From Antedon mediterranea (Eukaryota; Animalia; Echinodermata), in assembly GCF_964355755.1 (NCBI RefSeq), contig NC_092680.1, positions 5,642,001-5,706,000 on the forward strand: 64,000 nucleotides of DNA, read 5' to 3'. A program made the position numbers and the translations under genes. Below are positions 2,062 through 63,601 of the stretch, piece after piece. Below the pieces are notes generated by a model that was not told the origin of the DNA, ran no database searches, and saw nothing but the letters and a program-made list of their open reading frames with translations. Numbering within the stretch: position 1 is the first letter of the stretch; the number at the start of each line of letters is the position of its first letter.

Positions 2062-5000
2062 AATAATATTAATAATTCAATTCCAATGTGATGACACACA
2101 CAACATATTTAAAATAATACGGAATTATTACTTTGTTTTCAAAAGTCTTCATTGTTTATTTTCAAAACCCATCCAGTATTCCAATGTGTCAGCCGATTTT
2201 CGGATCTGTATCTACAATTTGTCGAGTATCAAATATATACAATGTATCTTGTCTTTTACATGTGACGTCTATATCATAGGCCATATAAGGCCATATAATA
2301 AGCCTCAACTATACATTTATCTAAACTTCCGTGATGCAGACGCCACATATGAAACTGTATTATGAAATTTGAATAGATGATACTCGACAAAATAATGTCA
2401 TTGGGCAAATACATTACAACATTAGGCATATTGGTCTACAACAAAATAAGTGAGTGCATTATTTACAATCTAATATTTATGCTATAGTCTTGTTCTTTTT
2501 TACAGACATTTGTGCCACATATTGATACCTTAATTGAAGATATCAATGAGTCGGATATTCGACACAAAGTTCTTATGGTGCTGTGTGAAATTGCGGCGAA
2601 ATACCCAGAAAAATTTGTTAATCATATTGAAAGTCTTACTGGGCTATTAGATTCCGATTCAAACACAGTGTACTTCGTAGATAAGATAGTTGCCAGTGTT
2701 GGAACCGTTAATAAGGTACGTGGTGGAAATTCAAATGTAAACGAAAAGTGCCTTTTGATATTGAATTTGCAATTTGTTAAGTTTATTTTACTTTCCTTTT
2801 CCTAATTTTATAGGAATGGGCAATCAAAATCCTAAAGATTTTAATTGATCAGCTTCAGACAGTACAAACGTGCTACCATGTCTACGTTTTAATGGAGTTG
2901 AAAAGAATAGGACATATATTTCCTGAATGTTTAACAGAATATAGAAAAGAAATAGAGGCCATGAAGGGAAGTTCACAGACGGGGATAAAAGACATAGTGA
3001 TTCAACTCATTGATGTTATGGAAGGAAGAACGTAAGTAACTTGAGAAATGGAAAATCAAGCGCATGGAAAAGGGACTTTGGGGTGTAGAGGTTGGAAAAA
3101 AGCTTTATTCTTGGGAAGATACCCACACCCCAATTCGGTCCCTTCCTAAAATCCTGTGTCCGCACCGTTAAATGATGTCCTGGTGTTTTTTTCTCTATAC
3201 GATAGTTTGGAAGGTTTACACGAGAACATTGTAGACCAGCGAGAGGACATCGAGGTATTGGATACACGGGTGACAAACACAGAAAATAACGTTGCAGAAG
3301 TTACAGAGAAAGTTGAGGAACAAGGAAGGGAAATAACGGCTGTTAAAACAGACGTTGCAGAACAAGGACAGAAATTGGAAGAGTTAGAAGAAGTTGTAGA
3401 TGAAACTGTTTTAAAAGTCGACGACATAGATCATAAAGTAAGATTTATTCTTCATATTTAACATTTTAGATGGGACCTACGTGTTATGTGATTATAAGAA
3501 ATTAATAAATAAAAAAATTTAAAAAATGGATGAAAGATTGCAATATTGAAGTAAAATCCTCAACATGAAAAAATCGTCTGACAAATCTGCATTTTCTAGA
3601 CGATTACTAATGCACCAAAATGGTCACGTGATGTTTCAAAACTACTAAATCCAGAAGCTGACTACGATTGGAGATTTTTGGCGATACGTCTCGGCTACTC
3701 GGGGGAGGACATTCGAAACTGGGCGTTGTCACCCGACCCGACTATGGCAATTCTTGCCGAATGGTACACGACCCATAAAAGTAGTGATGCAACATATGCA
3801 ATACTGACGGCGTTAGAAGATATGGGACAAGCAGAGGCTGTAAAGATAGTTGAAGAATCTTTAGAACAAGCAGGTAATCAAGCACACATAAATAAAAATA
3901 CAATTTATTTTTAGTTTTTTTCTCAAGAACGAATAATGTATAATCATTACTGTATAATGAAAAGCAATCGTGTTCCTAATTCAGATTTTTATTGAAATTA
4001 TAGATGCAATGGTTCCAAAATTAGAACCCGGAATATCAGAGAAACCGCCAAAAGTATTCATTAGTTACCAATGGGATCATCAATCTGAGGTGAAGGCTAT
4101 AAGAGATCATCTTGAGATGGCAGGATTTGCTTGCTGGATGGACATTGGTCAGATGGGAGGTGGAGATAATTTATATGCAAAAATCAACGAAGGAATGAGA
4201 GCTGCTAAAGTTGTTCTATGTATGACAACTGACAAGTATTCAAAATCTGAAAACTGTAACAAAGAGGTAAAAAGAAATTTACTGATTAACTAGGCTATAT
4301 CTCTACGACGCTTTCAACAAATTATAGCATTATTTAAATTACTTTAAATACTAAATACTTTATTTTGTTTATCCTCATTACAGGTGAACTTGGCGAATCT
4401 GCTCAACAAGCCAATCATACCGATCCTTATTGAGCGTACAGTCTGGCCTCCGGAAGGACCAATGAGCATGCTTTTTGCTCAGCTTCTTTACATCCAATTT
4501 TTCACGGATAAGCATAACGTCAGAGGAGATAAATTTTGGGTTGATACCAAATTTTGCGAGTTATTGGCGCAAGTTAGTTATTATGCTGCTCCCGATCTTG
4601 ACAAAATTACTGACGGTAAGTGAAGATTCTATTTAAATATTGAATGTCCTACTGTAGCCTTTTCTTCCTTTGTGTATTTTATGTTTCAGAAGTATTCGAA
4701 ACGTATTATAACCACCTAATATCATTGATTGATTTACGAATCACGTTTTTCTTTTTTCAGAATACAAAAGTTGGGTACCAACTGTTGAAGCACCTGAGCA
4801 AGAAATAAAACAAGCTAAGAAAGATGATAAAGGCGGTGAAACCAAAGTGGTAGAATCTGAGCAGGTAATTTTCACTAATTATACAGGAGTATACAAAAGG
4901 TATTTAACGTAAGCTCACAAACATACAAATAGTAATATTAGAAATAATACGCCCTTGTAATCTATATATAAGGGCAAAATTCGGTAAATCACGCGTTATT

Positions 5001-6684
5001 TCTAGAATGTTTACTCGGTAGTATATAAAGTTCGTTCGTACTTTCGGTCCTGATTTTAACCACCTGAAGTAACCCTGTTTACTAATTAAATTGAGTTCGA
5101 TAATTAGTTATTGACAATTAAAACGAATTTAGGTTCAACAATTTGCCCCTAATAGTGGTGTTTTCCGTGGTATAAACTGTCTAATGGATGTCCATCTTGA
5201 AAAATACCCGCACACAATAATACGAGGATGCTTCGCATTTTCTTATCTCCTCCTACGATAATTGGTTTAATGGCTGAAAACCATTTGTTTACAAAACAAA
5301 AGTTTGTTTAAAATGAGTCCTTTCGGAAGTAATTTTCAGGGTGCTAATTTTAGTTGACTACATAAATCATCGTGTCTATTTATTCGTTTCTGTAAACGAC
5401 AATGTATTATACTAGTCCTGCGGTACGTACATTTGAAATCGCCAGTTTTTTTACGCTGAAATTACTGTGTATTCGAGAACGTCCATCTGGGCACGACCTA
5501 GATGGTACCCGAGCGAAGCGATCTAGTTATATTAATTACCCTTTATTGAGATGCATTGATTAATGTATTGCTCTACAAATGGGTTCATTTACAAAACGCT
5601 ATCAAGTCACTAACTTAATAAACGAATAGCTTTTCCTAATTTATTACCAGTTCTGTTCTTTACTTAGCAAGCGGAAATCGAACCAGAAGTCTTCATATCA
5701 TACCAATGGGATCATCAACCACAGATAAAGGTCTTGTACCAACGACTGACCAGTCTTGGTTACTCGTGTTGGTTGGATATCAAACAAATGGGCGGAGGAG
5801 ATCCACTGTATAGTAAAATCGACAAAGGTCTTCGCAAAGCTAAGGTAAGTCAATTCAACTCTATTATTTACATACTACTAACTATTGTAAATAAACAATA
5901 ATATAATAATGTACCTAACCTACCTAAATATTCGAATACTAGCTAAAGGACACAATTAAGTGCCACCGTACTTTTTTTCAATGTATGTACAATGTTAATA
6001 CTATATAAAAACGCGAAGATCGTACTATCAAGGTTAATTATTAGGTTTAATATTTTGTCTATATGATTTTTATAATAGGTTGTAATTTCCTGCGTTACAC
6101 CGAAGTATTCATTGTCCGCCAACTGCCGTCGTGAAGTCAGTCTATCAGATGCTCTCCGTCGACCAATCATTCCAATCCTTCTCCAGCAGATGGCGTGGCC
6201 ACCAGAAGGTCCAATGAGCATGACATTTACGCAACTTCTCTACATTGACTTCACCAAGGAGTCAAGTCAGGAAAGTTTTATCGACGAACAATTTGACGAA
6301 CTTATTATAAAAATTAATGAACATGCGCAGGCTGTAGAAGGTAAAACGTCTGCGAAACTATCTACACCTGATCAGCCGAAACCAACATCGGAAGATTCGA
6401 CACCTGAAGAACCAAAGTTCGAAGATCCGAATCACGAAGAATCAAAATGTGAAGATCCAAAACCTGAAGAACCAAAGTTCGAAGATCCGACACCCCAAGA
6501 ACAACAGTTCGAAGATCCGACACCCCAAGATCCAAAACCCGAAGATCCAAAACCCGAAGAACCAAAACCCGAAGAACCGAAACCCAAGGTACATGCTCCT
6601 AAAGAAATACCGCGGCAAACAACCCCTAATCCACCTGAACCAAATAAACAACACAACAAATCTAAGGCATGTTGCGTTTTATGA
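201..6684 (+). CDS. HEAT/ARM-like - coiled coil - Death - TIR - TIR - EDPKP repeat - CaaX protein, paralog 1 (5' part lies before the window)
   Basis: 12 exons with GT-AG boundaries and consistent phases: 201-333, 769-961, 1587-1732, 2506-2715, 2814-3031, 3206-3437, 3600-3873, 4004-4266, 4384-4615, 4761-4864, 5668-5844, 6079-6684. Death-like motif [19 protein letters not shown]...AILAEW. TIR box1 VFISYQW occurs twice, with WMDI/WLDI and NCNKEV/NCRREV. Ends KSKACCVL-stop. The first 11 exons match paralog 2 in length. Confidence 0.9.
976..1106. mobile_element. Small degenerate MITE-like inverted-repeat element
   Basis: ttaacgctgcattca...tgaatatagcgttaa ends, plus an inner gcggaaggcggcgcc / ggtgccgtcttccgt pair. 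Only the left half survives in paralog 2 (about 16305-16356), so it predates the duplication. Confidence 0.55.
4961..5526 (+). mobile_element. Non-autonomous Helitron (short derivative)
   Basis: Starts TC(TATATATA), ends CTAG, sits between A and T with no TSD. Absent from the matching paralog-2 intron (about 21430). Both ends match the element at 39527-36983. Confidence 0.85.
6386..6590 (+). repeat. Coding 15/30-bp tandem repeat ([10 protein letters not shown]) in paralog 1
   Basis: Repeated gaagatccgaaaccc/gaagaaccaaagttc-like units. Confidence 0.9.
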
Positions 6685-7745: not shown

Positions 7746-8636
7746 TGATTGAAATCAGTGTGTATTGTATTTTAGGTCTTAGAAGACTCCCTTGAAAATA
7801 TTACATGTTATTCTTTTATTATAAAGTTTGATTTTTCCCATCTGTTCTTCTACAGTATCTTGATTAAATTAAAGCTATGCTTACCTTACCTTTATCTCAA
7901 GATTTATTAGTCGATTTTTATAGAAGCTGTTTCATTATATTTTCTTTAATTAGAAGTAAAATAATTAATTACCGTTTCAAACTGAATCTAATTTAATGCA
8001 AATGTACAATAAAATAGTGTTTTTTAAAATTATAATTTACAAAAAGGTATTGAAAAATAATTATATATTATATATTATATAGTAGTTTAATTTATGTGAA
8101 GTAGTTGACTATACATGCTGCATGTTGTATTTTCTCTAATTATTTAGTTTATAACTATGGATTATGGTTATTATGAATTCATGAAATAAAAAATAAAATA
8201 AATTTTAAGTGTGTGAAATATAGTGTTTGTAATTTGATTCTTCAAATAATAATAATTATTATATTCAAATACACTTATTCTGCACGAGTGTGTTATAGCA
8301 ATTATATGGGCTTTATGGTTGAACTTGAAGGACGTACTGAGGTAAGGAAAAATAATTTTAAAAAAATTAATTATATATAATATATATATATATATATATA
8401 GAATTAATGTTCTTTGCCTGATTTGTTTATATATATTTGTATCTCCATTGAGCCAGCCACTGATACCCACAGCATTGTCATTTTTTCAGTTATTTGCCTT
8501 TGGAATTATATATATATATATATATTTATACAGTAGGCAAAGAACATTAATTCTAAACCGCCCGGTGATATACTGAAATTTAATTAATTAATTTGAAACG
8601 ATAAAGATGAGGAAATCTGTGAGAATGAGAAAAAGT

Positions 8637-8708
8637 CGCCCCAACCGAGACTCGAACTCGGACCGTCTGCTTGATATGCAGTTGCCCTAACCATTAGACC
8701 ACTGGGGC
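8637..8708 (-). tRNA. tRNA-like cloverleaf, anticodon ATC; probably a tRNA-derived repeat head or pseudo-tRNA
   Basis: GCCCCAG-TG-GTCTAATGGTTAGGGC-A-ACTGC-ATATCAA-GCAGA-CGGT-CCGAG-TTCGAGT-CTCGG-TTGGGGC-G, 72 nt. A and B boxes intact, followed by a T5 run. Non-canonical A32 and a 27:43 mismatch. Confidence 0.55.
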
Positions 8709-8998
8709 TTTCATGGTATTGTTCAAACTCGATTGGATAGCGACTCTTTAACATTCTCGGCGTGGTACGGCGGAACAGCACTAGTCCTCAGTTGTACACA
8801 CGCGCACCAGAGATCAAATTGATACGCCCTCATCTTACAGTATTTTTATTCACGAGGCGGGATCTCCGAAGAGATACTTTTATATATAAACACAGTAGGC
8901 AAAGAACATTAATTCTAAACCGCCCGGTGATATACTGAAATTTAATTAATTAATTTGAAACGATAAAGATGAGGAAATCTGTGAGAATGAAAAAAAGT

Positions 8999-9070
8999 CG
9001 TCCCAACCGAGACTCGAACTCGGACCGTCTGCTTGATATGCAGTTGCCCTAACCATTAGACCACTGGGGC
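8999..9070 (-). tRNA. Second tRNA-like cloverleaf (ATC) with one acceptor-stem mismatch
   Basis: Same sequence 362 bp away. 3' end is TTGGGAC-G, followed by a T7 run. Confidence 0.45.
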
Positions 9071-9367
9071 TTTCATGGTATTGTTCAAACTCGATTGGAT
9101 AGCGACTCCTTAACATTCTCGGCGTGGTACGGCGGAACAGCACTAGTCCTCAGTTGTACACACGCGCACCAGAGATCAAATTGATACGCCCTCATCTTTC
9201 AGTATTTTTATTCACGAGGCGGGATCTCCGAAGAGATACTTTTATATATAAACACAGTAGGCAAAGAACATTAATTCTTATTAATTTAAGTATTTATATA
9301 AACACATCGGGCAAAGAACATTAATTCTAAACCGCCCGGTGATATACTGAAATTTAATTAATTAATT

Positions 9368-10229: not shown

Positions 10230-13200
10230 ATGAAACGGGCAGAGGTCGAAGCGGTTGTAGTTGAAATCTCAGAATCAATTGAGGATTTTAAGTACATGCC
10301 AAAACTGATTAAAGCAGTGACTGAATTTGAAGAAGAGGAGGATGTCAGAAGGCGGAACATGCGAGTATTAACAAATGTCATTGACAAAGTACTTTCTGCC
10401 GCTAAAAAAAGGTTTGTCATACGACATTTTATTTAAACTGTTTTAGTTATTTGAATAACTAAACAGGCCTAGTAGCATGTAGGCCTAGTTACTAAGTTAA
10501 GCTAAGTAACTGACTTCAAGGAATGGTATATATAAGAATATTTAAGAGCGTATTTATTTACTCACACAGAATCCTCCTAATTTGTTATAAGTTATTGGTG
10601 GACAAAACTTAAAACATTATAATTTACTTCATTACTTTACTAAAGCGTGTGGTTCCCACTACTAGCGACGCAACGCAAGGACGTAACGCAACGCAAGTGA
10701 ATTGACCAATCACAAGCGATGGCTTATTCGCTTGTGACTGCTAACTGTCTATAACTTCGCTTGTCATTGGTTAAAACGCTTGCGTTGCGTTTACGTCCTT
10801 GCGTTACGTTCTAGTGGGAACCAAGCTTTAAGGGCTTAACAGCAAATAGTTCAGTACGGTACATAAGAATAGACGGATACATTATTTATAGACTTACTAC
10901 CATATTTAAATGAAATAATGACTAATTTAACATATTTTTCTTTTAAATTGTTGAAATATGTATTTAAATTTGTTTGGATACAGCAAGGGTAAAGAGTCTA
11001 AAGCATTCGCCGGACTTGCAGTTGCCATGGCAGAGACGAAGATGTATACGTACTGTAGCAGACTGGAAACTATATTTAAAGACCGGAACATCGTCAATTG
11101 GAAAGTAAAGCTATTTCTTTATTTTAAAGGTTCTCCCCCAAAGTCTAGATTAAATTAGGATAAATTACTTATCTTAGAAATTCATGTTTTAATTTGTTGG
11201 CAATGGAGAGAGACAGAGTAAGGAATGGTTGCCGCATTCTCACTCTTTCTCCTATTGGTCGTTATGTGGACGCGCTGCCCGGGCTTCATCCAGTAAAAAT
11301 CGGAATTCCCCGCGCTATGTGCAGCCATTGATAGGGCACTTTATATCATGTGATATACACAGTCGTTCAATCGATGACCGGAATCTCTTTATGTGTTTTA
11401 TTTTGTTTACCAATTTTAATTGGTCAAAAACTTAAGACCACTTAAAAGTAGTCGTAAGGTTTTTTTTATGAACGAATACTCTCAATAAAATTCCTAATTA
11501 GTATTATTATATTATCTATTATTCTTCAGTTTTTCTTCAGTTCTCAGGCCAATATATTTTTAATTTTTTATCTTGTTTATTAAGGACCACTCAACAGAAG
11601 CTATACAAATAATAGAGTCATTCATGGAACCAACAATGACTGACCATGAACATGCTAAAGAAAAAAGATATTTTAACATAGAAATGGTCGCAGCATTTGT
11701 GTAAGTAGGCCCTACAGTACGCTTAAAGATCTATTTTCCCCCTGAACATTTTTTTTAATATGCCATTTTAATATCACATAATAGTTATTTACATTGAACA
11801 AAAATTGAACTGAAAATAAATTATTTATCTTTATTTTTAAAAAAAATAGTCAAATTTACAAAAGCCCGTTCGGGCCACTAGTTAATTATATTTTAAGAGC
11901 TGTTACCAGGTGGCCGCCAGATAACTATCTAGCGGACGCCACTTAATTATCTGGCGGAAGCCACTTAATTATCTGTCTGTATTGCATCAACAAGTATGTT
12001 TGCTTTGACATACACTATGACGGCAAATACAATGTTGACGCAAATATTGGAACTTAGATTTAACGAAAAAAATATTGGCATGGTAAAAATGCAATTATTC
12101 GAGATATATCCTATTTTTTATAATTTACACTTTATATTAGGGCTCGGAAATATTTGGGTAATTTATCCTATTTTATTTATAATTTGGGCTTGGTTATGCT
12201 TAGGTAGGACTTGACCTGGGCTATGGGCTTTTGTCACAAGAGAATGTACAGTGTCTGGCGGTCAGATGACGCAATACAGACAGATAATTAATGGCGTCCA
12301 GAAGATAATTAAGTGGCGGCCGCACGATAATTAACTGGCGGCCGCCAGGTAACAGCTCTTAAAATACAATCAACTAGTGGCATGAACGGGCTTCCGTACA
12401 AATTGGCAGCCGGTTGAATTTAACCGTTTGTCAATTTTGAAAACAATTTTTTCGGGGTTTTTTTCTATGGAAGGGATTAACATTGGTAAAACTATAAAAT
12501 ACCTTATTCAAAGTCTAATATTAATTTTTTTTTTCCTAATTTTTTTTAGACAACAATACATCTTTAATAATAAATAACATTATACAAATAAATGGTGTTT
12601 TTCTGTGTATCCCTCTATTGACAGTATTAACACCTTTCTACCTAATTAAAAATAATTATACAGTATTTACTGTCTTTTATTCATTTATTTGTACATTTTA
12701 TTTTTCTAATATTTGACAGCACCGAACATTGGTACATTCTTAAAAAATATGTTTTAAAGTGGATGCAATAACATTACAGAATCCTTCCATCATTTTTAAC
12801 ATAGTATAGGCATATTAGGCCTAACTTAATTCATAATTAAAATCGAATAAACATAAGAGAGGTTTCGCAATCTTACGAATACGATAACGAAAACGGATAC
12901 GTCACACATTTTGTGAAACTTTTGAGCTGATCCCCATTTCATATTCGTAAAGCGTATTTGTGTTGACGAATATCACCAGTCATATTCGTAACTACAAAAC
13001 GAGTAGGCCTATAGTTTTTGATCTATTTTGCACATTTTGCATTTGAATCAGGAATGATTCATGATTATAATATAATTATACTTTTATTGAAAGTAATTTA
13101 CTAAAGTAATTTACTAAAATGCCAGGTAAATTTTGATAAATAGCAATTTTTAAAGTCTTCACTCGCTTTGATGTTACGCTCGGCCTAGGCAGCCAAGCAC

Positions 13201-16200
13201 CAAGCAACACGTACTGCGCTTCCCTCACATTTACCGCAGTCATATTTTGGGAGGCGCCCTCAATATTTCGTTGCAATGCGAAACTTTTTTACTGGCTTAC
13301 GAAAAACGAATACGTGTGCGTGACGTATCCGTTTTCGTTATCGTATTCGTAAGATTGCGAAACCTCCCTATTAACATAGAAAAAGGATCAATAACTATAA
13401 AAGCATATTAGGCCTACATCGTAATACGGTCTGCTCGATGGAGTTTGATCGACAATACAAAATAAACGCTTCAATTTGAAACACAAAGCTAATTTAAACG
13501 TATTATATTGTTTAAATAATAATATACAATTTAATCATTACTGTATAGTAACTTTTGTACAGGTGATATTCGTCTTTAACTGTTTTTCTTTATTTTATAG
13601 ACGAGATAAGGTGGCTAAGAAAATTGAAATCAAGCTTGTACAACTGTTGATAAATTGTCTTGAGAAATTCAACTATATTAATCTTAAGGTTGCTTTAGGA
13701 TTGACATATCGCTGGGATTTTAATGTTGAAGTAAGCTATTTATAGTTTAATCTCGTATCTAAGAAAGTTTAGATATTACTAAAAGGCTAGATTGATTAAA
13801 GATGTAGGCATATTGTCCCTTGAAACACAAAAAAAATGAAGGTCAAAATATTCTAAATTTAAATTGGCCATATCAAAGTAATATTAAAGTTATTCACTTT
13901 AAGTCGAAAATTTACGTATTTAACAGGTAAATTAATTTGATTACATTTCGTCTGGAAAATCGTCGCGAGCGAAAGTAAACAAAGATTTCAGAACACGAGT
14001 ATGCATTATGTGTGATGCTAATTAGGATAGTTTACAACTCGTCACGGTTGAAAAGGTGTTTTCACATAGATCGCGAGAAGTTTTATGATTATGCATACAG
14101 AGTAGCCAAATTAGCGTGTTGCATTATGAGATATGTTTTGATCGAAACTTTGACTGGAAGTCAAAGTTATTTTTTTAACAAAAAAGTATGTATTTCAGTT
14201 AAATGATTTTTTCTTCGACAAATTTTTGGTGATAGTTAATAACTATTATGATACTTCAAAATTACCCACATTTTTCGAAATATTTTTTTAAAATTTTTTT
14301 GGAATTAGTCAAAGGAACAATACATCTTTAACATTTGTAAACACGACAGTAATAGTAATCAATCGATGATAAGGTAAATTTATTCATAGCATGTGTGCTA
14401 TACAGACTAGCAAGCAAAGCTTTACGGCTAGTTACACTTTCATTAGAAAGGTATATACTACGGAAGTTTTTCTATAATATCTGTACATTTTTAACTGGCT
14501 GTAATTGGCACATTAATCGAATCTATTATCAAACAAAAACTACAATACTTTGGACATATTGCCAGACGGGATGGAGATAGTATGGAGAAAATGATTATGT
14601 TTGGGAAAGTTGAGGGGAAACGAAAAAGAGGAAAACAGAGACCCAGATGGATTGATGGTATAAGTGGTGCTGCAAACCGACCAATAATCAGTTGCTACAA
14701 TGAAGCTCAAGATCGGCAAGAATGGAGACACCTCATCAGAATGGTCACGAGTACTCAGATATGAGTAGAACGACGAGAGAGTAATTGAATATTATATAAA
14801 TAGTTCTAAGGCATTAGGAACTTTAAACCGCCAATTAATTTACAGAATTGTTTTTATATTCTTATTTGATGGAGATCCTGAGATGATCTGATACCGGTGT
14901 TTTTTTTTTGTGTCTGTCTTTGTATTTAAACTTATTTTATGCAATTGATTTTGTAACTATGGACGTCCGTTTCCGAAATAAATACAAAATGAATGAAATG
15001 AAATAAACGGAAGATTATGTTCGATCATGTAATTTCAAATAGGGCATTTGCTAACGAAATTAACTACTCTGTAGAAAGCTAATGCTTGTGTTTTCAAATG
15101 GGTTATCTAATCGATAATTAATTGTTACTTAAAGGACAGGACTATTATACTCAAGTTAATAAAGACTATTGATGAGTGGATGACAACATTTGATGATATA
15201 ATGGCAAAAGACAATCGTCCCCTCGAACTAAGGCTTGTGGAAGAGTCGTTGGAAATTGCATTTGAATCCAACTGGTAAGAAACCAAGCTTTTGAACGATA
15301 AGCCATTGTTTTAGTTTTTCACCTTAGACCTATTAATCTTCCTTATTTCAGTACCTAACTAATTACATTGTAAATTTACTGTGTTTACGTTCAGTTATTT
15401 AACAGAAAAACGGTTTTAAAAATGAGAGTTTAAAAAAATGAAGTAAATATCTTGGACTGGTGTTACCGGTGTTTTTAAACGAAAGCGGAAAAAACGAATG
15501 ATTTGAGGTGTGTAGGCCATGTTAATGTCATTTTCTCCCATTTTTTAGCCCTCCAAAATTATACCTAAACGATGTTATAAGAATGTGGAAGAATGCATTG
15601 ACAAAAGAGTTAGAAGGTCAACCATTGACAGGATGGGGAATAATAGCATCTACAATAATAAATAAACTCATCATTCCAAAGGTAAATAATATTGCTTTTA
15701 ACTTTACAAAGTACTCCTATTTCTCATTTTGGACAGAGTTTAACAAAACATTACAACAATATATATTTATGTTGTGTGTTATAACTTTAATCTTGAATTT
15801 TAGGCATTTTGTATTAAAGATACGTTATATCAAATAACGTCCCATTCATCACTAATTCTTCCTATTATCATCGTTTTCTTTGTCTTTGGCCTGAATAGAA
15901 TAAAAATACTAAAATTTATTATTATTATACATTATTGTTTATAACTTTAATATTAATGTACATAGAAATATGTATACATACCAGCTGAAATTAATACGCT
16001 GACATTAATTAAATATTTGTTTGGTTCACATTTGAAATGTTTGTAACAGGACATTCTTTTCAAATATTTTTTTTGGAGCGTTTTTATTTCATTTACAGGC
16101 TTCTATGTTTGATATGACTGAGTTCGCCCCGGGTGTAATGACTCTAATACGGGCGGACATCAAGAAGTTAACTTCTTCTGCGTCTAGTGTGATATCATCC

Positions 16201-19200
16201 ATGTACGAAAAGGTGGACACATTTGTGCCGTGGACAGAAGAACTCGTTGACCTTTTTCTAGACGACGATGAGATGTATACTAGTATAGGAAGTATGTGAT
16301 CAGATTAACGCTGCATTCACACTCTTTCGCAAACGGAAGGCGGCGCCATTTTGTTCTATTATTATTATTTAATCACCAATGAATAATAATGATATGGTCA
16401 ATGTTATTAAACTAAATTTGAATTGAATAGTCTTAATGATGACGTCATATTGTCAAAATATCATATCAGCTCAAAATATATAATAAGTTGGAACTATTGC
16501 ATACATTTATAGTACAAATTGTTGCCGGGGTATATTATACAAAGAATTATAACGTAGGCCTTGTTACAACCGTTAATGTAGAAAACGCCAGCTAATGTCG
16601 AAACAACCGTTAATGTAGAACAACCCACCGCTTATGTAGTAAAACCTCCAGCTTATGTAGAAACACCAACAGCTTATGTAGAAAATAAAAATCAACACCA
16701 GCTAATGTAGAAACAGTCAACAGCTTATGTAGTAACGAAAATTGCCTCCCAGCTTATGTAGTTACTATCGCCAGCTAATGTAGAAAATGTTATACATTTT
16801 ACAAATGCATCGATCTTTACTTAGCTATCAGTCTTTCCACCTTTCGTAAGCAACCAACTTTCTAAAACGACCCACATATCGTAACCAACCATCTCTGTTA
16901 AGAGACCCTTTCACATAATCGACCACCTCTCGTAAGGGATCACCTCCTCTCATAAGGGACCACTTCTCATAATCGACCACCTCTCTCGTAAGCGACCACC
17001 TCTCGTAAATGACCACCTCTTTTAAGGGACCATGACCTCTTTCTCTCTTTTAAAGAACCACCTCTCTTAACGTCCCCACCTCTCGTAAGTGACGACCTCT
17101 TTTAAAGGACCACCACCTCTATTAAGGGACCGCTTCTTATTGACCACTTCCGAGAGGTGGTCGATTATGATAAATGGTCCCTTAAAAGAGACGGTGGTCG
17201 TTCAATAGAGGTGGTCACTTACCAAAGGTCGTTGTGAGAAGCGGTTCTTTAATAGAGAGAAAGAGGTTGTGGTCCCTTAAAAGAGGTGGTCACTTACGAG
17301 AGGTGTGGTCGTTAAGAGAGGTGGTCGCCTACGAGAGGTGGTCGATTATGAAAAGCGGTTCCTTATGAGAGGAAGTGATCACTTACGAGAGGTGGTCTAT
17401 TATAAGCAGTGGTCCCTTAATAATAGAAACGGTGGACGTTCAATAGAGGTGGTCACTTACCAGAGATCGTTGTGACGGGAGATAGTCGATTATGAGAAGC
17501 GGTCCTTTAATAGAGAGAAAGAGATCGTGGTCCCTTAAAAGAGGTGGTCATTTACGAGAGGTGTGGTCGTTAAGAGAGGTGGTCGCTTACGAGAGGTGGA
17601 AAGACTGATAGCTAAGTAAAGATCGATGCTTGCACATGAATTATAGACATTTTTGTAAAATATATAACATTTTCTACATTAGCTGGCGATAGTAACTACA
17701 TAAGCTGGGAGGCAATTTTCGTTACTACATAAGCTGTTGGTGTTTCTACATAAGCTGGAGATTTTACTACATAAGCGGTGGATTGTTATACATTAACGGT
17801 TGTTTCGACATTAGCTGGCGTTTTCTACATTAGCGGTTGTAACAGGCCTAAATCAAATATTTGTGTTGAAAAGAAAATCTTTCAAAAAGAACTTATAATT
17901 ATGTTGAAAATTATGTCCATTATACAAACATTATTTAACTTCTAAATATAGTCTACAACTTACCAATGGAAACTAACTTGAAAATGTTTTCTTTTTCTTC
18001 GTCAATAAACCCTTACTATTATTATGGCCATCAATTATTAAATTTGTAGGAATATTAAACAATTATTATTATTTATTTTTAGGTTCATTAAAACCACTGT
18101 ATGTTAAATGTCCTGAGAAGATTATGAGTAAAATGGATTTAATCTTAGAAAGGTTACCTGACATGGATGCGAAAAGGAAACACTATATTTATGTTTTATT
18201 TGACAATGTTTCGAAAACTTCCACTAAGGTAAGGCAAGAACAAACTGATTAAATATTCCTATAGATAAACAACTGGTCCGAACTGGTCCGAACGTGGTCA
18301 TAATTTTGAAGACATGCACTATCTTCAGTTCAAATCAAAACACTAGGCACAATATAATAAGCGGCAGGTCCAAGAGCTTGTTTAGAGAGCGCCCATTGCC
18401 ACCTCTCTACAAACTTTAAAGTACACTAAATCCTTTGTTAGCCTAAACCCTTAATAGTAATTCAGAGCTGTACCGTTGATCGAAAATTCACTGCGGTCAT
18501 CCTCAAATCCAAGATGGCGTTCAAAATTGCCGGCATTTCTAACACAAGCCTAAGGTTTAAAAACTGTACATGTTATCAAACAATATGAAAATAAGGATCT
18601 ATTTAATTATTATGATTATCATTTCACCATAGTTAAAGGTGACCCAGAAAGGGTGAGCTTATTTTAAAGGACCCTCAACAAGACAAGACGACACACAATA
18701 ACAAACAATATAAACAAAATATAAGCAAATTAAAATGTATCTAATCTTCCATGATACAGACTCCCCATGTGACACTGTATCACGGAATTTGAATGTGATA
18801 CTAAAAAAATAATGTCTTTGTGGAAATACATCACAAAACGACGCATATTGGTCTTTAAAAAAATAAGTAAGTGCATTACGCCAATTTACTATGTATTATT
18901 ATAATATTTATGCTATAGTTGTTTTATTACAGACATTAGTACCACATATTGATACTATCATTGAAGATATCAATGAGTCGGATATTCGATACCAAGTTCT
19001 CATGGTGCTTGGTGAAATTGCTGCGAAATACCCAGAAAAATTTGTTAATCATGTTGAAAGTATTAATGGGTTATTAGATTCCGAACCAAACACAGTGTAC
19101 TACGTAGATAAGATAGTTGCCAGTGTTGGAACCGTTAATAAGGTACGTGGTGGAAATTCAAATGTAAACGAAAAGTGCCTTAATATTGAATTGACAATTT

Positions 19201-22200
19201 GTTAAATATATTTTACTTTCTTTGTTCAAATTTTATAGGAATGGGCAATCAAAATCATAAAGATTTTAGTTGATCAGCTTCAGACAATACAAACGTCCTA
19301 CCAGGGTATCGTTTTAATGGAAATGAAAAGAATAGGCCATAAATATCCTCAATGTTTAACACCATACAGAAAGGAGATAGAGGCCATGAAGGGAAGTGCA
19401 CAGATGGGAGTACGAGACGTGGTGATTTCACTCATCGATTTTATGGAAGGAAGAAGGTAAGTCACTTGAGATGGACGTACAAATTCTGTTTTTCTCACGA
19501 AAATCAAGCGCATGGGAAAGGGAAACCTTTTGGGTTGTTAAGGTTATCAAAAAAAGCTTTATTCTTGGGAAGATATCAACACCTCAATTCGGTCCCTTTC
19601 CAACATCCTGTGTCCGCACCGGTAAATGATGTGCTGGTGTTTTTTCTCCTCAATACGACAGTTTAGAAGGTTTACACGAGAACATTGTAGACCAGCGAGA
19701 GGACATCGAGGTATTGGATACGCGAGTGACAAACACAGAAAATAACGTTGCAGAAGTTACAGAGAAAGTTGAGGAACAAGGAAGGGAAATAACGGCGGTT
19801 AAAACAGACGTCGCAGAACAAGGACAACGATTGGAAGAGTTGGAAGAAGTTGTTGATGAAACCGTTGTAAAAGTCGACGAGATAGATCATAAGGTAAGAT
19901 TTTATTCCTTATATTTAACATTTAAGATGGGATTAACAATCCTTTTCATGTGATTCACACAAATTATAGACTTACAGTACGTGTGATGTGATATGATAAG
20001 ATAAGAAATGGATGAAAAGATTGCAATATTTAAGTAAAAACCACATATCTATGACAACATTTCTGACAAAATCTATTTTCTAGACGATTACTAATGCACC
20101 AAAATGGTCACGTGATGTTTCAAAACTACTAAATCCAGAAGCTGACTACGATTGGAGATTTTTGGCGATACGTCTCGGCTACTCGGGGGAGGACATTCGG
20201 AACTGGGCGTTGTCACCGGACCCGACTATGGCAATTCTTGCCGAATGGTACACGACCCATAAGAGTAGTGATGCAACATATGCAATACTGACGGCGTTAC
20301 AAGATATGGGACAAACAGAGGCTGCAAAGATAGTTGAAGAATCTTTAGAACAAGCAGGTAATCAAGAACACATAAATACACATTTTCTCATTGACAATTA
20401 ATATATAAACATTACTGTATAATGAAAGCCAATCATGTTTCTAATTCAGATTTTCATTAAAATTATAGATGCAATGGTTCCAAAATTAGGACCCGAAATA
20501 TCAGAGAAACCGCCTAAAGTATTCATTAGTTACCAATGGGATCATCAACCTGAAGTGAAGGCTATAAGAGATCATCTTGAGATGGCAGGGTTTGCTTGCT
20601 GGATGGACATTGGTCAGATGGGAGGAGGAGATAATTTATATGCAAAGATCAACGAAGGAATGAGAGCTGCTAAAGTTTTTCTGTGTATGACAACTGAGAA
20701 GTATTCGAAATCAGAAAACTGCAACAAAGAGGTAAAAAGAAATTTACTGATTAACTAGGCTATATCTCTACGACGCTTTCAACAAATTATAGAAATCTTA
20801 CTCACATGGTAACTTTAAATACTAAATACTTTATTATGTTTATCTTCATTACAGGTGAACTTGGCGAATCTGCTCAACAAGCCAATCATACCGATCCTTA
20901 TTGAGCGTACAGCCTGGCCTCCGGAAGGACCAATGAGCATGCTTTTTGCTCAGCTTCTTTACATCCAATTTTTCACGGATAAGCATTACGTCAGAGGAGA
21001 TAAATTTTGGGTTGATACCAAATTTGCAGAGTTATTGGCGCAAGTTAGTTATTATGCTGCTCCCGATCCAGAAAAAATTACTGACGGTAAGTGAAGATTC
21101 TATTTAAATATTGAATGTCCTACTGTAGCCTTTTCTTCCTTTGGGTATTTTATGTTTCAGAAGTATTCAAAACGTATTATAACCACCTAATATCATTGAT
21201 TGATTTAGGAATCACGTTTTTCTTTTTCAGAATACAAAAGTTGGGTACCAACTGTTGAAGCACCTGAGCAAGAAATAAAACAAGCTAAGAAAGATGATAA
21301 AGCCGGTGAAACCAAAGTGGTAGAATCTGAGCAGGTAATTTTCACTAATTATACAGGAGTATATAAAGAGTATTTGACGTAAACTCACTAACTAAATAGT
21401 AAATATTAGAAATAATAAGCCCTTGTAATCATATTAATTCAATAATTTATTGCTGATTGTAGAGATGGATTGATGTGTGCTCTACAAATGGGCTTATTTA
21501 CAAAATGTTATCAAGTCACTAACTTAATCAACCATAGCTTTTCCTAATTTATTACCAGTTTTGTTCTTTACTTAGAAAGCGGAAATCGAACCAGAAGTCT
21601 TCATATCATACCAATGGGATCATCAACCACAGATAAAGGTCTTGTACCAACGACTGACCAGTCTTGGTTACTCGTGTTGGTTGGATATCAAACAAATGGG
21701 CGGTGGAGATCCATTATATAGTAAAATTGACAAAGGTCTTCGCAAAGCTAAGGTAAGTCAATTCTACTCTATTATTTACATACTACTATTGTAAATAAAC
21801 AATAATATAATAATGTTCCTAACCTACCTAAATATTCGAATACTAGCTAGTGTTCTAAAGGACACAATTTTAGGTGCCACCGTACTTGTTTTATGTATGT
21901 ACAATTTTAATACTATTTAAACACGCGAAGATTGTACTACCAACGGTACTCAATGCACAGTTGAGGTTAATTATTAGGTTTAATATTTTTGTCTATGAAT
22001 TGTATTATAGGTTGTTATTTCCTGCGTTACACCGAAGTATTCATTGTCAGCCAACTGCCGTCGTGAAGTCAGTCTATCAGATGCTCTCCGTCGACCAATC
22101 ATTCCGGTCCTTCTCCAGCAGATGGCGTGGCCACCAGAAGGTCCAATGAGCATGACATTTACACAACTTCTCTACATTGACTTTACCAAGGAGTCAAGTC

Positions 22201-22898
22201 AGGAAAGCTTTACCGACGAAAAATTTGACGAACTTATTACAAAAATTAATGAACATGCACAGCCTGTAGAAGGTGATACGTTTGCAAAACCATCTACACC
22301 TGAACGAGTTTCTGATCAGCTGAAACCCACATCCGAAGATTCGAAACCCGAAGAACCAGAGTTTGAAGATACGAACCCCGAAGAACCAAAGTTCGAAGAT
22401 CCGAACCCCCAAGAATCAAAGTTCGAAGATCCGAAACCCGAAGATCCAAAACCCGAAGAACCAAGACTCGAAGATCCGAAACCCAAAGAACCAAAGTTCG
22501 AAGATCCGAAACCTGAAGATCCAAAACCCGAAGAACCAATGCTCGAAGATCCGACACCTAAAGAACCAAAGTTCGTAGATCCGAAACCCCAAGAACCAAA
22601 GTTCGAAGATCCGAAACCCGAAGAACAAAGGTTCGAAGATCCGAAATCTGAAGAATCAAAGTTCGAAGATCCGAAATCTGATGAGTCAAAGACCAAGGAT
22701 CCGAAATCCGAGGAAGCAAAGACCGAAGAACCGAAACCAGAGGACGCAAAGTCTGAAGATCCGAAATCCGAAGAATCAAAGTCCGAAGATCCAAAACCCG
22801 AGGTACATGCTCCTAAAGAAACACCGCGGCAAACAACCCCTAATCCGCCTGAACCAAATAAGCATCACAGAAAATCTAAGGCATGTTGCGTTTTATGA
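10230..22898 (+). CDS. HEAT/ARM-like - coiled coil - Death - TIR - TIR - EDPKP repeat - CaaX protein, paralog 2 (apparently complete, about 1252 aa)
   Basis: 17 coding exons: 10230-10411, 10984-11104, 11585-11700, 13601-13730, 15135-15274, 15549-15681, 16099-16291, 18083-18228, 18933-19142, 19239-19456, 19662-19893, 20084-20357, 20469-20731, 20855-21086, 21231-21334, 21576-21752, 22011-22898. Total 3759 nt, in frame. ATG in ACCATGA context just after an acceptor at 10218. The first five exons have no in-window paralog to confirm them, so they are less certain. Confidence 0.88.
10642..10829. mobile_element. MITE (PIF/Harbinger-like)
   Basis: TIR aaagc..tggttcccacta / tagtgggaaccaagcttt. Subterminal acgcaaggacgtaa / ttacgtccttgcgt. 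Confidence 0.75.
11727..12563. mobile_element. Kolobok-like non-autonomous element carrying a nested MITE
   Basis: ttaa|agatctattttccc ... acaatacatct|ttaa termini. Related to the element at 13800-14327. Confidence 0.55.
11859..12396. mobile_element. MITE with long TIRs, TA-flanked
   Basis: aagcccgttc..ccactagtt-att-tattttaagagctgttacc is mirrored by ggtaacagctcttaaaatacaatcaactagtgg..gaacgggctt. Subterminal taattatctggcgg repeats. Confidence 0.8.
12857..13368. mobile_element. MITE, about 510 bp, about 47-bp TIR (Harbinger-like)
   Basis: gagaggtttcgcaatcttacgaatacgataacgaaaacggatacgtcac and its reverse complement at the other end. A near-identical copy in opposite orientation is at 33898-34397. 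Confidence 0.9.
13800..14327. mobile_element. Kolobok-like non-autonomous element
   Basis: ttaa|agatgta..tattgtccc ... ggaacaatacatct|ttaa. Confidence 0.55.
14535..14782 (+). mobile_element. RTE-clade LINE 3' fragment
   Basis: Translates [42 protein letters not shown]...AQDRQEWR, the typical RTE ORF C-terminus. Confidence 0.85.
16557..17848. mobile_element. Foldback-type DNA element, about 1.3 kb, imperfect palindrome with modular subrepeats and TA TSD
   Basis: ta|ggccttgttacaaccg...cggttgtaacaggcc|ta. Outer cagc(t/a)atgtag repeats and inner gaccacctct repeats are mirrored on both arms. The empty site ataacgTAaaac is at 1307-1308 in paralog 1. Confidence 0.9.
22335..22803 (+). repeat. Expanded coding 15/30-bp tandem repeat ([10 protein letters not shown]) in paralog 2
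   Basis: Same units. The last-exon ORF is 284 aa here versus 190 aa in paralog 1. Confidence 0.9.
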
Positions 22899-26598: not shown

Positions 26599-51034
<24,436 letters not shown>

Positions 51035-56115: not shown

Positions 56116-61835
<5,720 letters not shown>

Positions 61836-63601
61836 CTGTGGAGAATGAATTTGCACAGATGAAATGTGTATAATCACATTTAATATATTATTTGGTACTG
61901 GTACATTACAAAAAAAGATGTTGAACATTTAAAGTACTGTATCATTCTCATATAACCTCTCAGAGTCATTTTTGTTTTAAAATCAACTTTTCGAAATACC
62001 ATTTCATATCTGGCACAATTTTCTACGTTTTTCTATTTCGATACATTTTTGTTAACTGATTTAAAGTAAAAACATGGCTGGCAGTGAGTGCGTAAAAGTA
62101 ATATGAAGAATCAAATACGACAACAATGTTTATTAAGTATACAATTATATAAATTGTACAACTTAAAGGTTTCATTAGTGAAATTTGACAATAAAACATC
62201 GTTTGAACAGCATGTCATTATAATTTTCATACAAATTTGTCATAAAGTAAATGTCAAACACATAGAATATTCTAAAGAATATATAATTATTTATATCTTC
62301 TATATGTTCCATTTATAATTTATAGTAATTTCATACTACACTGTACCCAGACTTAGAATCCAGGTCAGTTATAGAAAGGTCGAGTAGACCAGTTTAGTGT
62401 TTTGTATACCCAAAGTAGTAACTCTTCCTTGGCATTTTACGAAATGCTATATTGGAGAATGTAATAATATTGTTGGAAATATACTACTATACAGACACGT
62501 CGTATACCTGACATTAGCATATGGAATAGCTTCAGAATTTAACATAATGTTTCCCATGATTAAAGTGACAGTCATGCCAAGTGTATCAAGTGTTTTTAAA
62601 TATTATACAGTAATTTATTGTTATCTTTGATAATTTAATATTTCTTTTCGGCCGATCAAAACAGAAGCATTTTTATTTTAAGTATTATGATATAATTTAC
62701 ATGATGTACACTATATGATGGTTCCTACGATTAAACCATGTCGGTTTCCTATAATAATTGATTATTCAGTACTTTCACATTACAGTATATTAGGCTAGTA
62801 TAGTAACTACTGTAGTATTAACCAATCAACAAAAACATTTCAAGAATGCCAATTACAAATTATAGGGTTAAAATTAATAACAATCATTTTCAATTTAGTA
62901 ACTGTCCCTTTAAGATCTCTTGCATTAAATTACATTTGCAAGAAACTCTACTTACTTTGTTCACCTGTTCAAAAATGTTAATCTTAATTATCTCAATCAG
63001 GTTTATCAAAATCTTACAAATTAACATTTCAAAACCCATAATACTACAGTATACAAAATATAATAATTAATATTAATCAAATTTGATTTTTACCATTTTT
63101 TAAAGATAAAATTTCATAAATAGAATATAAATCTCGAACCAGGTGTGTTAAATAAAATTGTTATTATTACTGTAATTAAATTGATTTCTTAAAACATCCT
63201 TTTTAACTCAATAAAATGTAAAAATAACAATATTATAAATATGAAAGTCATCTCATTTGTATACAGTATTGAAGGTACTGTAGCTTTAAATGCATACTGC
63301 AATATAATGTTAATTCTACTGGGACTGTATTAGAAAAGAAAGACAAAGAACATCAGAAAACCTAAATACTGTAGCTTTGTTCTACTGTAATGTTAACCAA
63401 TATATTTCCATGATTCTATAATAGCAGGATCAGTTAACAATTTATTTATTTGATCGATATACAGTACTAGTATTTTTAGTAATCATACAATAATAAGATA
63501 CTGTAAGTTAATTTGATTGAAGTTTTAAATACAGTTTATATAATTGGGTATTATTGGTTTGTGGGCTTCTATTCTGAGAACCAAAATGCAGTGAATCACC
63601 T

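Follow-up and report, generated by a model that had tools for sequence, protein, structure and literature searches.

We analyzed a 64,000-nucleotide stretch of the genome of the feather star Antedon mediterranea, a crinoid echinoderm (contig NC_092680.1, positions 5,642,001 to 5,706,000; hereafter, the window, in which all coordinates are counted from the first letter). Our subject is gene B, which occupies positions 10230..22898 of the forward strand and encodes a protein with two TIR domains. The DNA around it is AT-rich, animal, eukaryotic, and spliced, with introns in the gene; these introns and a GATAD2 neighbor rule out a bacterial origin of the window. Seventeen coding exons, when joined, give an open frame of 1252 amino acids, and every intron is bounded by GT and AG. 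Exons 1 to 6 lie at 10230-10411, 10984-11104, 11585-11700, 13601-13730, 15135-15274, and 15549-15681, exons 7 to 12 at 16099-16291, 18083-18228, 18933-19142, 19239-19456, 19662-19893, and 20084-20357, and exons 13 to 17 at 20469-20731, 20855-21086, 21231-21334, 21576-21752, and 22011-22898. The last five are the exons under study and encode the two TIR domains. The first exons were placed by homology to paralogs, and the last 978 amino acids are identical to the Antedon mediterranea protein P0001. The open frame, together with purifying selection, rules out a pseudogene.

The database model of P0001 departs from this structure at its 5′ end (10230-16291): it starts later, without the first three coding exons that paralog homology shows, and reads into part of the intron at 15682-16098, so that it carries intron-derived residues. 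Six gene B introns are bridged at GT..AG by contigs of run X1, which we take to be an RNA run. Because the joined contigs differ from gene B at 10 to 15 places per exon, their source is a paralog or an allele. They confirm the exon layout for that paralog or allele, not expression of the gene B copy itself.

The encoded protein consists of a HEAT/ARM solenoid, a coiled coil, a death domain, TIR1, a 50-residue linker, TIR2, Glu/Pro/Lys repeats, and a terminal CCVL. The alpha-solenoid (amino acids 1-530; 10230..19456) appears as helical repeats in the structure model and gives Foldseek matches to SARM1 and importin-alpha. The coiled-coil exon (amino acids 531-607; 19662..19893) has many weak, sub-cut-off coiled-coil Pfam matches and long helices in the model. 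In the Pfam scan, Death was matched once (20084..20357; PF00531, E 1.4e-11), with the p75NTR death domain as the nearest solved structure, and TIR_2 (PF13676) was matched twice, in TIR1 (amino acids 713-853; 20510..21055) and TIR2 (amino acids 903-1039; 21588..22256), each of which spans two exons. A coding tandem repeat (22334..22801; period 30 nucleotides, 15.6 copies) encodes a Glu/Pro/Lys-rich tether that is predicted to be disordered (pLDDT <50). It is followed by basic residues and the C-terminal CaaX box CCVL (22884..22895). Leu-ending CaaX boxes are geranylgeranylated. CCVL is thus a predicted geranylgeranyl anchor, and the gene B product probably resides at the cell membrane. The full-length structure model (pTM 0.44) and a model of the TIR pair of an ortholog (mean pLDDT 55) are both uninformative on domain packing.

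The motifs that the initial annotation quoted for the two TIRs are all present where it placed them. In TIR1, these are FISYQW at 20522, [11 protein letters not shown] at 20600, SENCNKEV at 20711, and WPPEG... at 20915; in TIR2, FISYQW at 21600, [11 protein letters not shown] at 21678, SANCRREV at 22047, and WPPEG... at 22128. Each motif has four copies in the window, one per TIR of the two paralogs, versus 0 to 0.05 per shuffled window (60 shuffles). As had been observed, the paralogs differ in the residue before KYS (E775 versus D); in total, they differ at six positions in TIR1 and at four in TIR2. Both TIRs of gene B retain the putative catalytic glutamate, as Glu786 (20729..20731) and Glu976 (22065..22067), and sequence alignments of two orthologs (P0048 and P0046) bear out its assignment to the position of SARM1 E642. 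Glu786 is the final codon of its exon, and the next residue is Val whether the sequence is read into the intron (GTA) or into the next exon (GTG). In the model, both glutamates are predicted to lie in the helix after beta-C (P0001 residue 695 in helix 690-701 and residue 885 in helix 880-891). Four residues before them stand Asn782 (20717-20719), in place of SARM1 W638, and Asn972 (22053-22055). The predicted adenine-side half is marked by the Trp of WPP, Trp807 in TIR1 (20915..20917; the position of SARM1 W662 and, by spacing, of AbTir W227) and Trp997 in TIR2 (22128-22130).

Gene B has the layout (solenoid, coiled coil, one death domain, two TIRs, and CaaX) of an ARM-Death-TIR-TIR family that is filed in databases as “MyD88-like,” one member being named “MyD88-like protein L1.” We assembled at least 142 proteins of this family from 49 matches among 66 candidates and the best 120 of 185 further matches. 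Among the matches listed, the family occurs in echinoderms, hemichordates, amphioxus, molluscs, annelids, a nemertean, a flatworm, and a rotifer; no relative was detected among the viral contigs searched. Two TIRs are present in 138 of the 142 proteins, a death domain in 140, and a Cys four residues from the C terminus in 122, against a background Cys frequency of 1.7%. These 122 proteins have an aliphatic residue at position −2 in 120 cases and end in Leu in 92. Pfam scans of eight members at E 0.01 gave no SAM domain, the place of which is occupied by the death domain and the coiled coil. Other architectures were also seen: in P0059 and four other scallop members, the twin-TIR protein has a WW domain fused to its N terminus, and P0208 and P0258 have seven and six TIR repeats, respectively, most with the Glu.

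Conservation at the key positions is nearly complete. The Glu is kept in 138/138 TIR1 and 137/138 TIR2 domains, and the sole TIR2 without it has lost the SYQW and GGGD motifs too. The residue four positions before it is Asn in 138/138 TIR1 and 136/138 TIR2 domains, and the adenine-side Trp, which ortholog alignments put on SARM1 W662, is kept in 137/138 of each. The family pattern is W-x-D-x-x-QMGGGD with the Glu, and SYQW is invariant and family-specific. Judged by alignment, the family thus keeps both half-sites of known TIR NADases, the Glu side and the W662/W227 side. TIR1 and TIR2 of gene B are 52% identical over 138 amino acids, and the internal duplication proposed earlier is real and ancient: the nearest neighbor has the same TIR index for 275 of 275 TIRs. 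A recent duplication is ruled out, as TIR1 and TIR2 separate in every taxon.

The tandem paralog, gene A (protein P0004; 201..6684, forward strand), lies upstream of gene B, with 12 exons in the window and its 5′ end upstream of the window. It keeps both glutamates (4264-4266 and 6133-6135). An insertion in one of its introns (4969-5282) recurs inverted at 39192-39509. Four Antedon paralogs are among the matches listed, and tandem arrays of family genes are present in several genomes. Between gene A and gene B, dN/dS reaches 0.90 for the solenoid (amino acids 231-530 of gene B) and 0.30 for the death domain; the values are 0.17 for TIR1, 0.11 for TIR2, and 0.08 for the coiled coil, and the difference between solenoid and TIRs is significant (Fisher test, P = 5e−5). 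Outside crinoids, cross-species identity is 20 to 39% in the solenoid versus 52 to 86% in the TIRs. A fast-evolving solenoid, conserved TIRs, and tandem arrays resemble immune receptors with a variable sensor and a fixed effector. The solenoid is a candidate sensor or autoinhibitory part, and the protein possibly has a role in immune defense.

In AbTir and SARM1, the active site is reported to span two TIRs, with the Glu and BB loop coming from one and an adenine-contacting Trp from the next (bioRxiv 2022.05.07.491051). To the family set we added distant members from a profile search (the best 150 of 16237 matches) and counted Glu losses in 156 proteins with two near-complete TIRs, after 10 partial ones were dropped. 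Short matches with TIR2 alone, taken to be fragments of gene calls, did not enter these counts. Both glutamates are kept in 144, only that of TIR1 is lost in 9, only that of TIR2 in 2, and both are lost in 1. In a quick tree of 49 rows, the nine TIR1-only losses sit in at least four places. The sea cucumber paralogs P0044 and P0045 have the opposite of the common pattern, with TIR1 intact and TIR2 decayed.

A divergent clade, which comprises 21 proteins after enlargement, 18 of them with both TIRs, is the most informative. At the catalytic position of TIR1, these 18 proteins have Gln in 16 cases, Leu in 1, and Glu in 1, and TIR1 has also lost SYQ and GD. Its Trp is nevertheless kept in 18/18, and column conservation in its C-terminal half is 0.90 versus 0.72 in the core family. 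TIR2 shows the reciprocal condition: Glu, SYQ, and Asn are each kept in 18/18, and the Trp is replaced by Tyr in 15 of the 16 proteins with that column. The linker between the TIRs is 13 to 24 amino acids long, compared to 47 to 53 in the core family. The clade adjoins bdelloid rotifer members (SH-aLRT 91, quick tree). Its members (P0281-P0292, P0157, and P0160) are mostly on metagenomic contigs, as full-length called genes of 1100 to 1330 amino acids; no metagenome locus among 80 had it as best-scoring match. A 43-amino-acid “Pseudomonas” entry in one protein cluster was discounted as a probable artifact of clustering. This residue pattern fits what one composite site, with TIR2 as the catalytic and TIR1 as the partner domain, would leave behind, and loss from one TIR only is not what one would expect of a Glu with a purely structural role. 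The initial suggestion that a covalent TIR pair could form a composite active site gains support from this reciprocal clade, to the extent that a single clade allows. Since the core family, including gene B, conserves all four half-sites, a second site between molecules would be possible there.

If the site is catalytic, the family offers some indication of its product. Among the matches listed, the solved TIRs nearest to orthologs by sequence are AbTir, TcpB, PdTIR, Cat1, SARM1, and SPARTA; no TLR or MyD88 TIR is among them. The initial annotation allowed for NADases or signaling-nucleotide enzymes, and these two halves of its claim fare differently: the former keeps the support of the Glu alignment and of these nearest structures, whereas the latter is the weaker. 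An aromatic residue four positions before the Glu is reported for 12/12 characterized cyclases (bioRxiv 2022.05.07.491051), and the WxxxE feature of such cyclases is absent here, with Asn at that position. Because Asn replaces the cyclization Trp, we consider plain NAD+ hydrolysis more likely than cyclic signals. We regard a synthase of cADPR, 2′cADPR, or 3′cADPR as very improbable, even though the majority of animal TIRs with activity in a large 2026 screen, one of them from an echinoderm, are reported to have made cADPR (bioRxiv 2026.04.20.719644). The same Asn, where the nicotinamide-stacking Trp would stand, and the family-specific SYQW, both called invariant, could instead mark a pocket for a nucleotide other than NAD+, which would hydrolyze cADPR or would sense a signal of ADPR type by which the death domain is activated. 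The death domain does suggest a protein output, and Drosophila Raw is described as needing both of its TIRs and as hydrolyzing cADPR, not NAD (PMC13455253). However, Raw is assigned in the same source to a separate TIR family with different catalytic residues, and AbTir W204A is reported to still cleave NAD+ (bioRxiv 2022.05.07.491051). We consider this alternative improbable, if less so than the synthase. The missing Trp weakens, but does not exclude, catalysis.

On balance, we lean toward the reading that the gene B product is a membrane-anchored, autoinhibited, SARM1-like NAD+ hydrolase with an active site shared by TIR2 and TIR1. Under the proposed mechanism, prenylation would tether the protein to the membrane via the disordered tail, while the fast-evolving solenoid would keep it off and sense a trigger. 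Once triggered, the coiled coil and death domain would cluster molecules, and the BB loop and Glu of TIR2 would dock on the WPP/beta-E face of TIR1 to form one composite site. Where both TIRs are intact, as in gene B, the TIR2 of a neighbor could complete the Glu site of TIR1. The product would more likely be linear ADP-ribose plus nicotinamide, so that the outcome would be NAD+ depletion and not a cyclic signal.

Several points weigh against a SARM1-like hydrolase. More than 70% of all TIRs are reported to carry the Glu, whose presence does not follow activity (PMC7075850); the Glu is found in >90% of TLR1/2/6/10, and S-x-N-C-x-x-E-V therefore fails as the mark of an enzymatic type for which it had been taken. 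Nor is S-x-N-C-x-x-E the same motif as WxxxE, as it has Asn where W638 of SARM1 and W204 of AbTir stand. The position of this nicotinamide-stacking Trp, absent here, is described as the most informative for separating active from inactive TIRs (bioRxiv 2022.05.07.491051). At the other half-site, the effect of SARM1 W662A is reported to be only modest (PMC11874154). The SARM1 EE-loop motif H[DE]YQ (as given in PMC7075850) is absent from both gene B TIRs. Fold searches confirm the TIR folds and do not separate enzymes from adaptors (SARM1 Z 14.8, MyD88 14.1, Hydra TRR-2 15.5). As for the half-sites, four versus two independent Glu losses are not significantly different, and the reciprocal clade is one event. 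Column conservation in the C-terminal half of its TIR2 (0.70) equals that of the core family, so that the apparent relaxation of TIR2 rests on one conservative Trp-to-Tyr change. A scaffold BE interface would likewise conserve a BB loop facing a beta-E face. Finally, relaxed selection would explain a solenoid dN/dS near 1 no less well than diversification would.

An alternative is a non-enzymatic adaptor or inhibitor of Toll-type signaling. At the membrane, its death domain and TIRs would associate with MyD88, IRAK, or TLRs, and its Glu would serve structure or assembly. The Death-plus-TIR layout and the database name agree with it, and MyD88 clusters are the atlas look-alikes, at 0.86 to 0.87, although we treat this as a lead only. 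The amphioxus protein bbtTIRC has two TIRs and two death domains; the amphioxus family member P0137 has one death-domain stretch in the Pfam scan. It is by analogy with bbtTIRC, reported to bind MyD88 and damp signaling (PMC6043800), that an inhibitory role might be expected. Aplysia orthologs with an ARM fold are entered as MyD88-like in PMC9334734, and most Glu-bearing animal TIRs were silent in the screen, which reports 12 active and 49 silent among 61 expressed in E. coli (bioRxiv 2026.04.20.719644). On the other hand, the family is without the MyD88 Box 2 RDVLPG, and the Glu is reported in <10% of MyD88 proteins (PMC7075850). The nearest death domain is that of p75NTR, with no MyD88 or IRAK chain among the matches listed, and the Glu was lost selectively from TIR1 in the divergent clade. 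We therefore judge an adaptor unlikely, though it is the strongest of the alternatives. The earlier premise that TLR-type TIRs act as scaffolds is itself outdated, as the TLR4 TIR is reported to make cADPR in E. coli (bioRxiv 2026.04.20.719644).

The existence of the family (from annotation), enzymatic animal TIRs, and Raw as a two-TIR precedent are already known. What is new here is the half-site evidence, together with the absence of the cyclization Trp, the conservation of the CaaX box, and the fast evolution of the solenoid. Our literature search turned up no functional study of the family, although the supplements of bioRxiv 2026.04.20.719644 may hold members. Animal TIR enzymology is an open field, in which few animal TIRs have been shown to be enzymes. 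Because that screen tested TIRs in isolation, a limit that its authors state, a family with a site split over two linked TIRs would be missed. If the SARM1-like reading is true, invertebrates have a second NAD+-depleting system of this kind, whose sensors vary, and many of the “MyD88 expansions” known from mollusc and echinoderm genomes need to be reread; the half-dead divergent clade gives exact residue predictions. More tentatively, and with considerable doubt, we conjecture that these proteins are prenylated single-chain immune receptor-enzymes, widespread in invertebrates and misfiled as MyD88-like. They would combine a diversifying HEAT sensor with a covalent TIR pair that has its own composite NAD+-cleaving site, and would have expanded into tandem arrays in molluscs, annelids, rotifers, echinoderms, and amphioxus. 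In one lineage, the pair would have been reduced to a catalytic TIR and a pseudo-enzyme partner.

Elsewhere in the window, an exon whose start is signal-like and which encodes a WW domain (PF00397, E 3.8e−13) lies on the reverse strand at 39582-39914. A GATAD2/p66-like gene with P66_CC and a GATA finger occupies 58102-59283 and 61280-61873 of the same strand, and an acidic open reading frame upstream may be its 5′ exon. A retroelement fragment with a zf-RVT domain (47696-48322, forward strand) adjoins a tandem repeat at 47133-47656. There is also a near-perfect direct duplication of 398 bp (8519-9278), and a dispersed family of ~150-bp elements with inverted ends extends over 27109-60892.

Among known systems, SARM1 and C. 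elegans TIR-1 (ARM-SAM-SAM-TIR NADases) share with the family an N-terminal helical solenoid, an oligomerizing middle, and a TIR with FISY, the Glu, and a WP motif. In the family, by contrast, a coiled coil and death domain take the place of the SAMs, there are two TIRs, Asn stands where SARM1 has W638, the H[DE]YQ loop is missing, the C terminus has a CaaX, and the genes occur in tandem arrays. AbTir, a bacterial TIR NADase and the nearest solved TIR by profile, has the GD-x-L BB loop and a site split between the Glu of one TIR and the Trp of the next, but it is a single TIR that forms filaments and a WxxxE cyclase that makes 2′cADPR. In Drosophila Raw and C. elegans OLRN-1, two TIRs of one chain are proposed to build one catalytic pocket (PMC13455253), a precedent that supports the shared-site reading. 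By their description in that source, they are set apart as a separate TIR family with DD1/DD2 dimerization domains and cADPR hydrolase activity, and without a death domain or solenoid. MyD88 also has a death domain N-terminal to its TIR, whereas the family has TIR_2-type TIRs with the Glu, a p75-like death domain, a long solenoid, and a second TIR. The S. purpuratus “MyD88-like protein L1” belongs to the same family (P0026 is 77 to 84% identical in the death domain and TIRs), as do the Aplysia ARM-fold “MyD88-like” genes, three loci of which are P0112, P0122, and P0148 (PMC9334734). Both are classed as adaptors from domain content in the accounts available to us, which contain no enzymatic test, twin-site analysis, or remark on CaaX. 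The closest sister Death-TIR module, with SYQW, GGGD, the Glu, WPP, and often a CaaX, is found in Neuralized-ROC-COR-Death-TIR proteins of molluscs and amphioxus, which have a single TIR behind a ROCO GTPase and are likewise uncharacterized. In this sister ROC-Death-TIR family (P0210, P0211, and relatives, with Neuralized and COR also in P0211), the Glu is present in 14/14 and a CaaX-like C-terminal Cys in 10/14 of the proteins checked. By these sequence comparisons, a Death-TIR-CaaX module is used behind different sensors.

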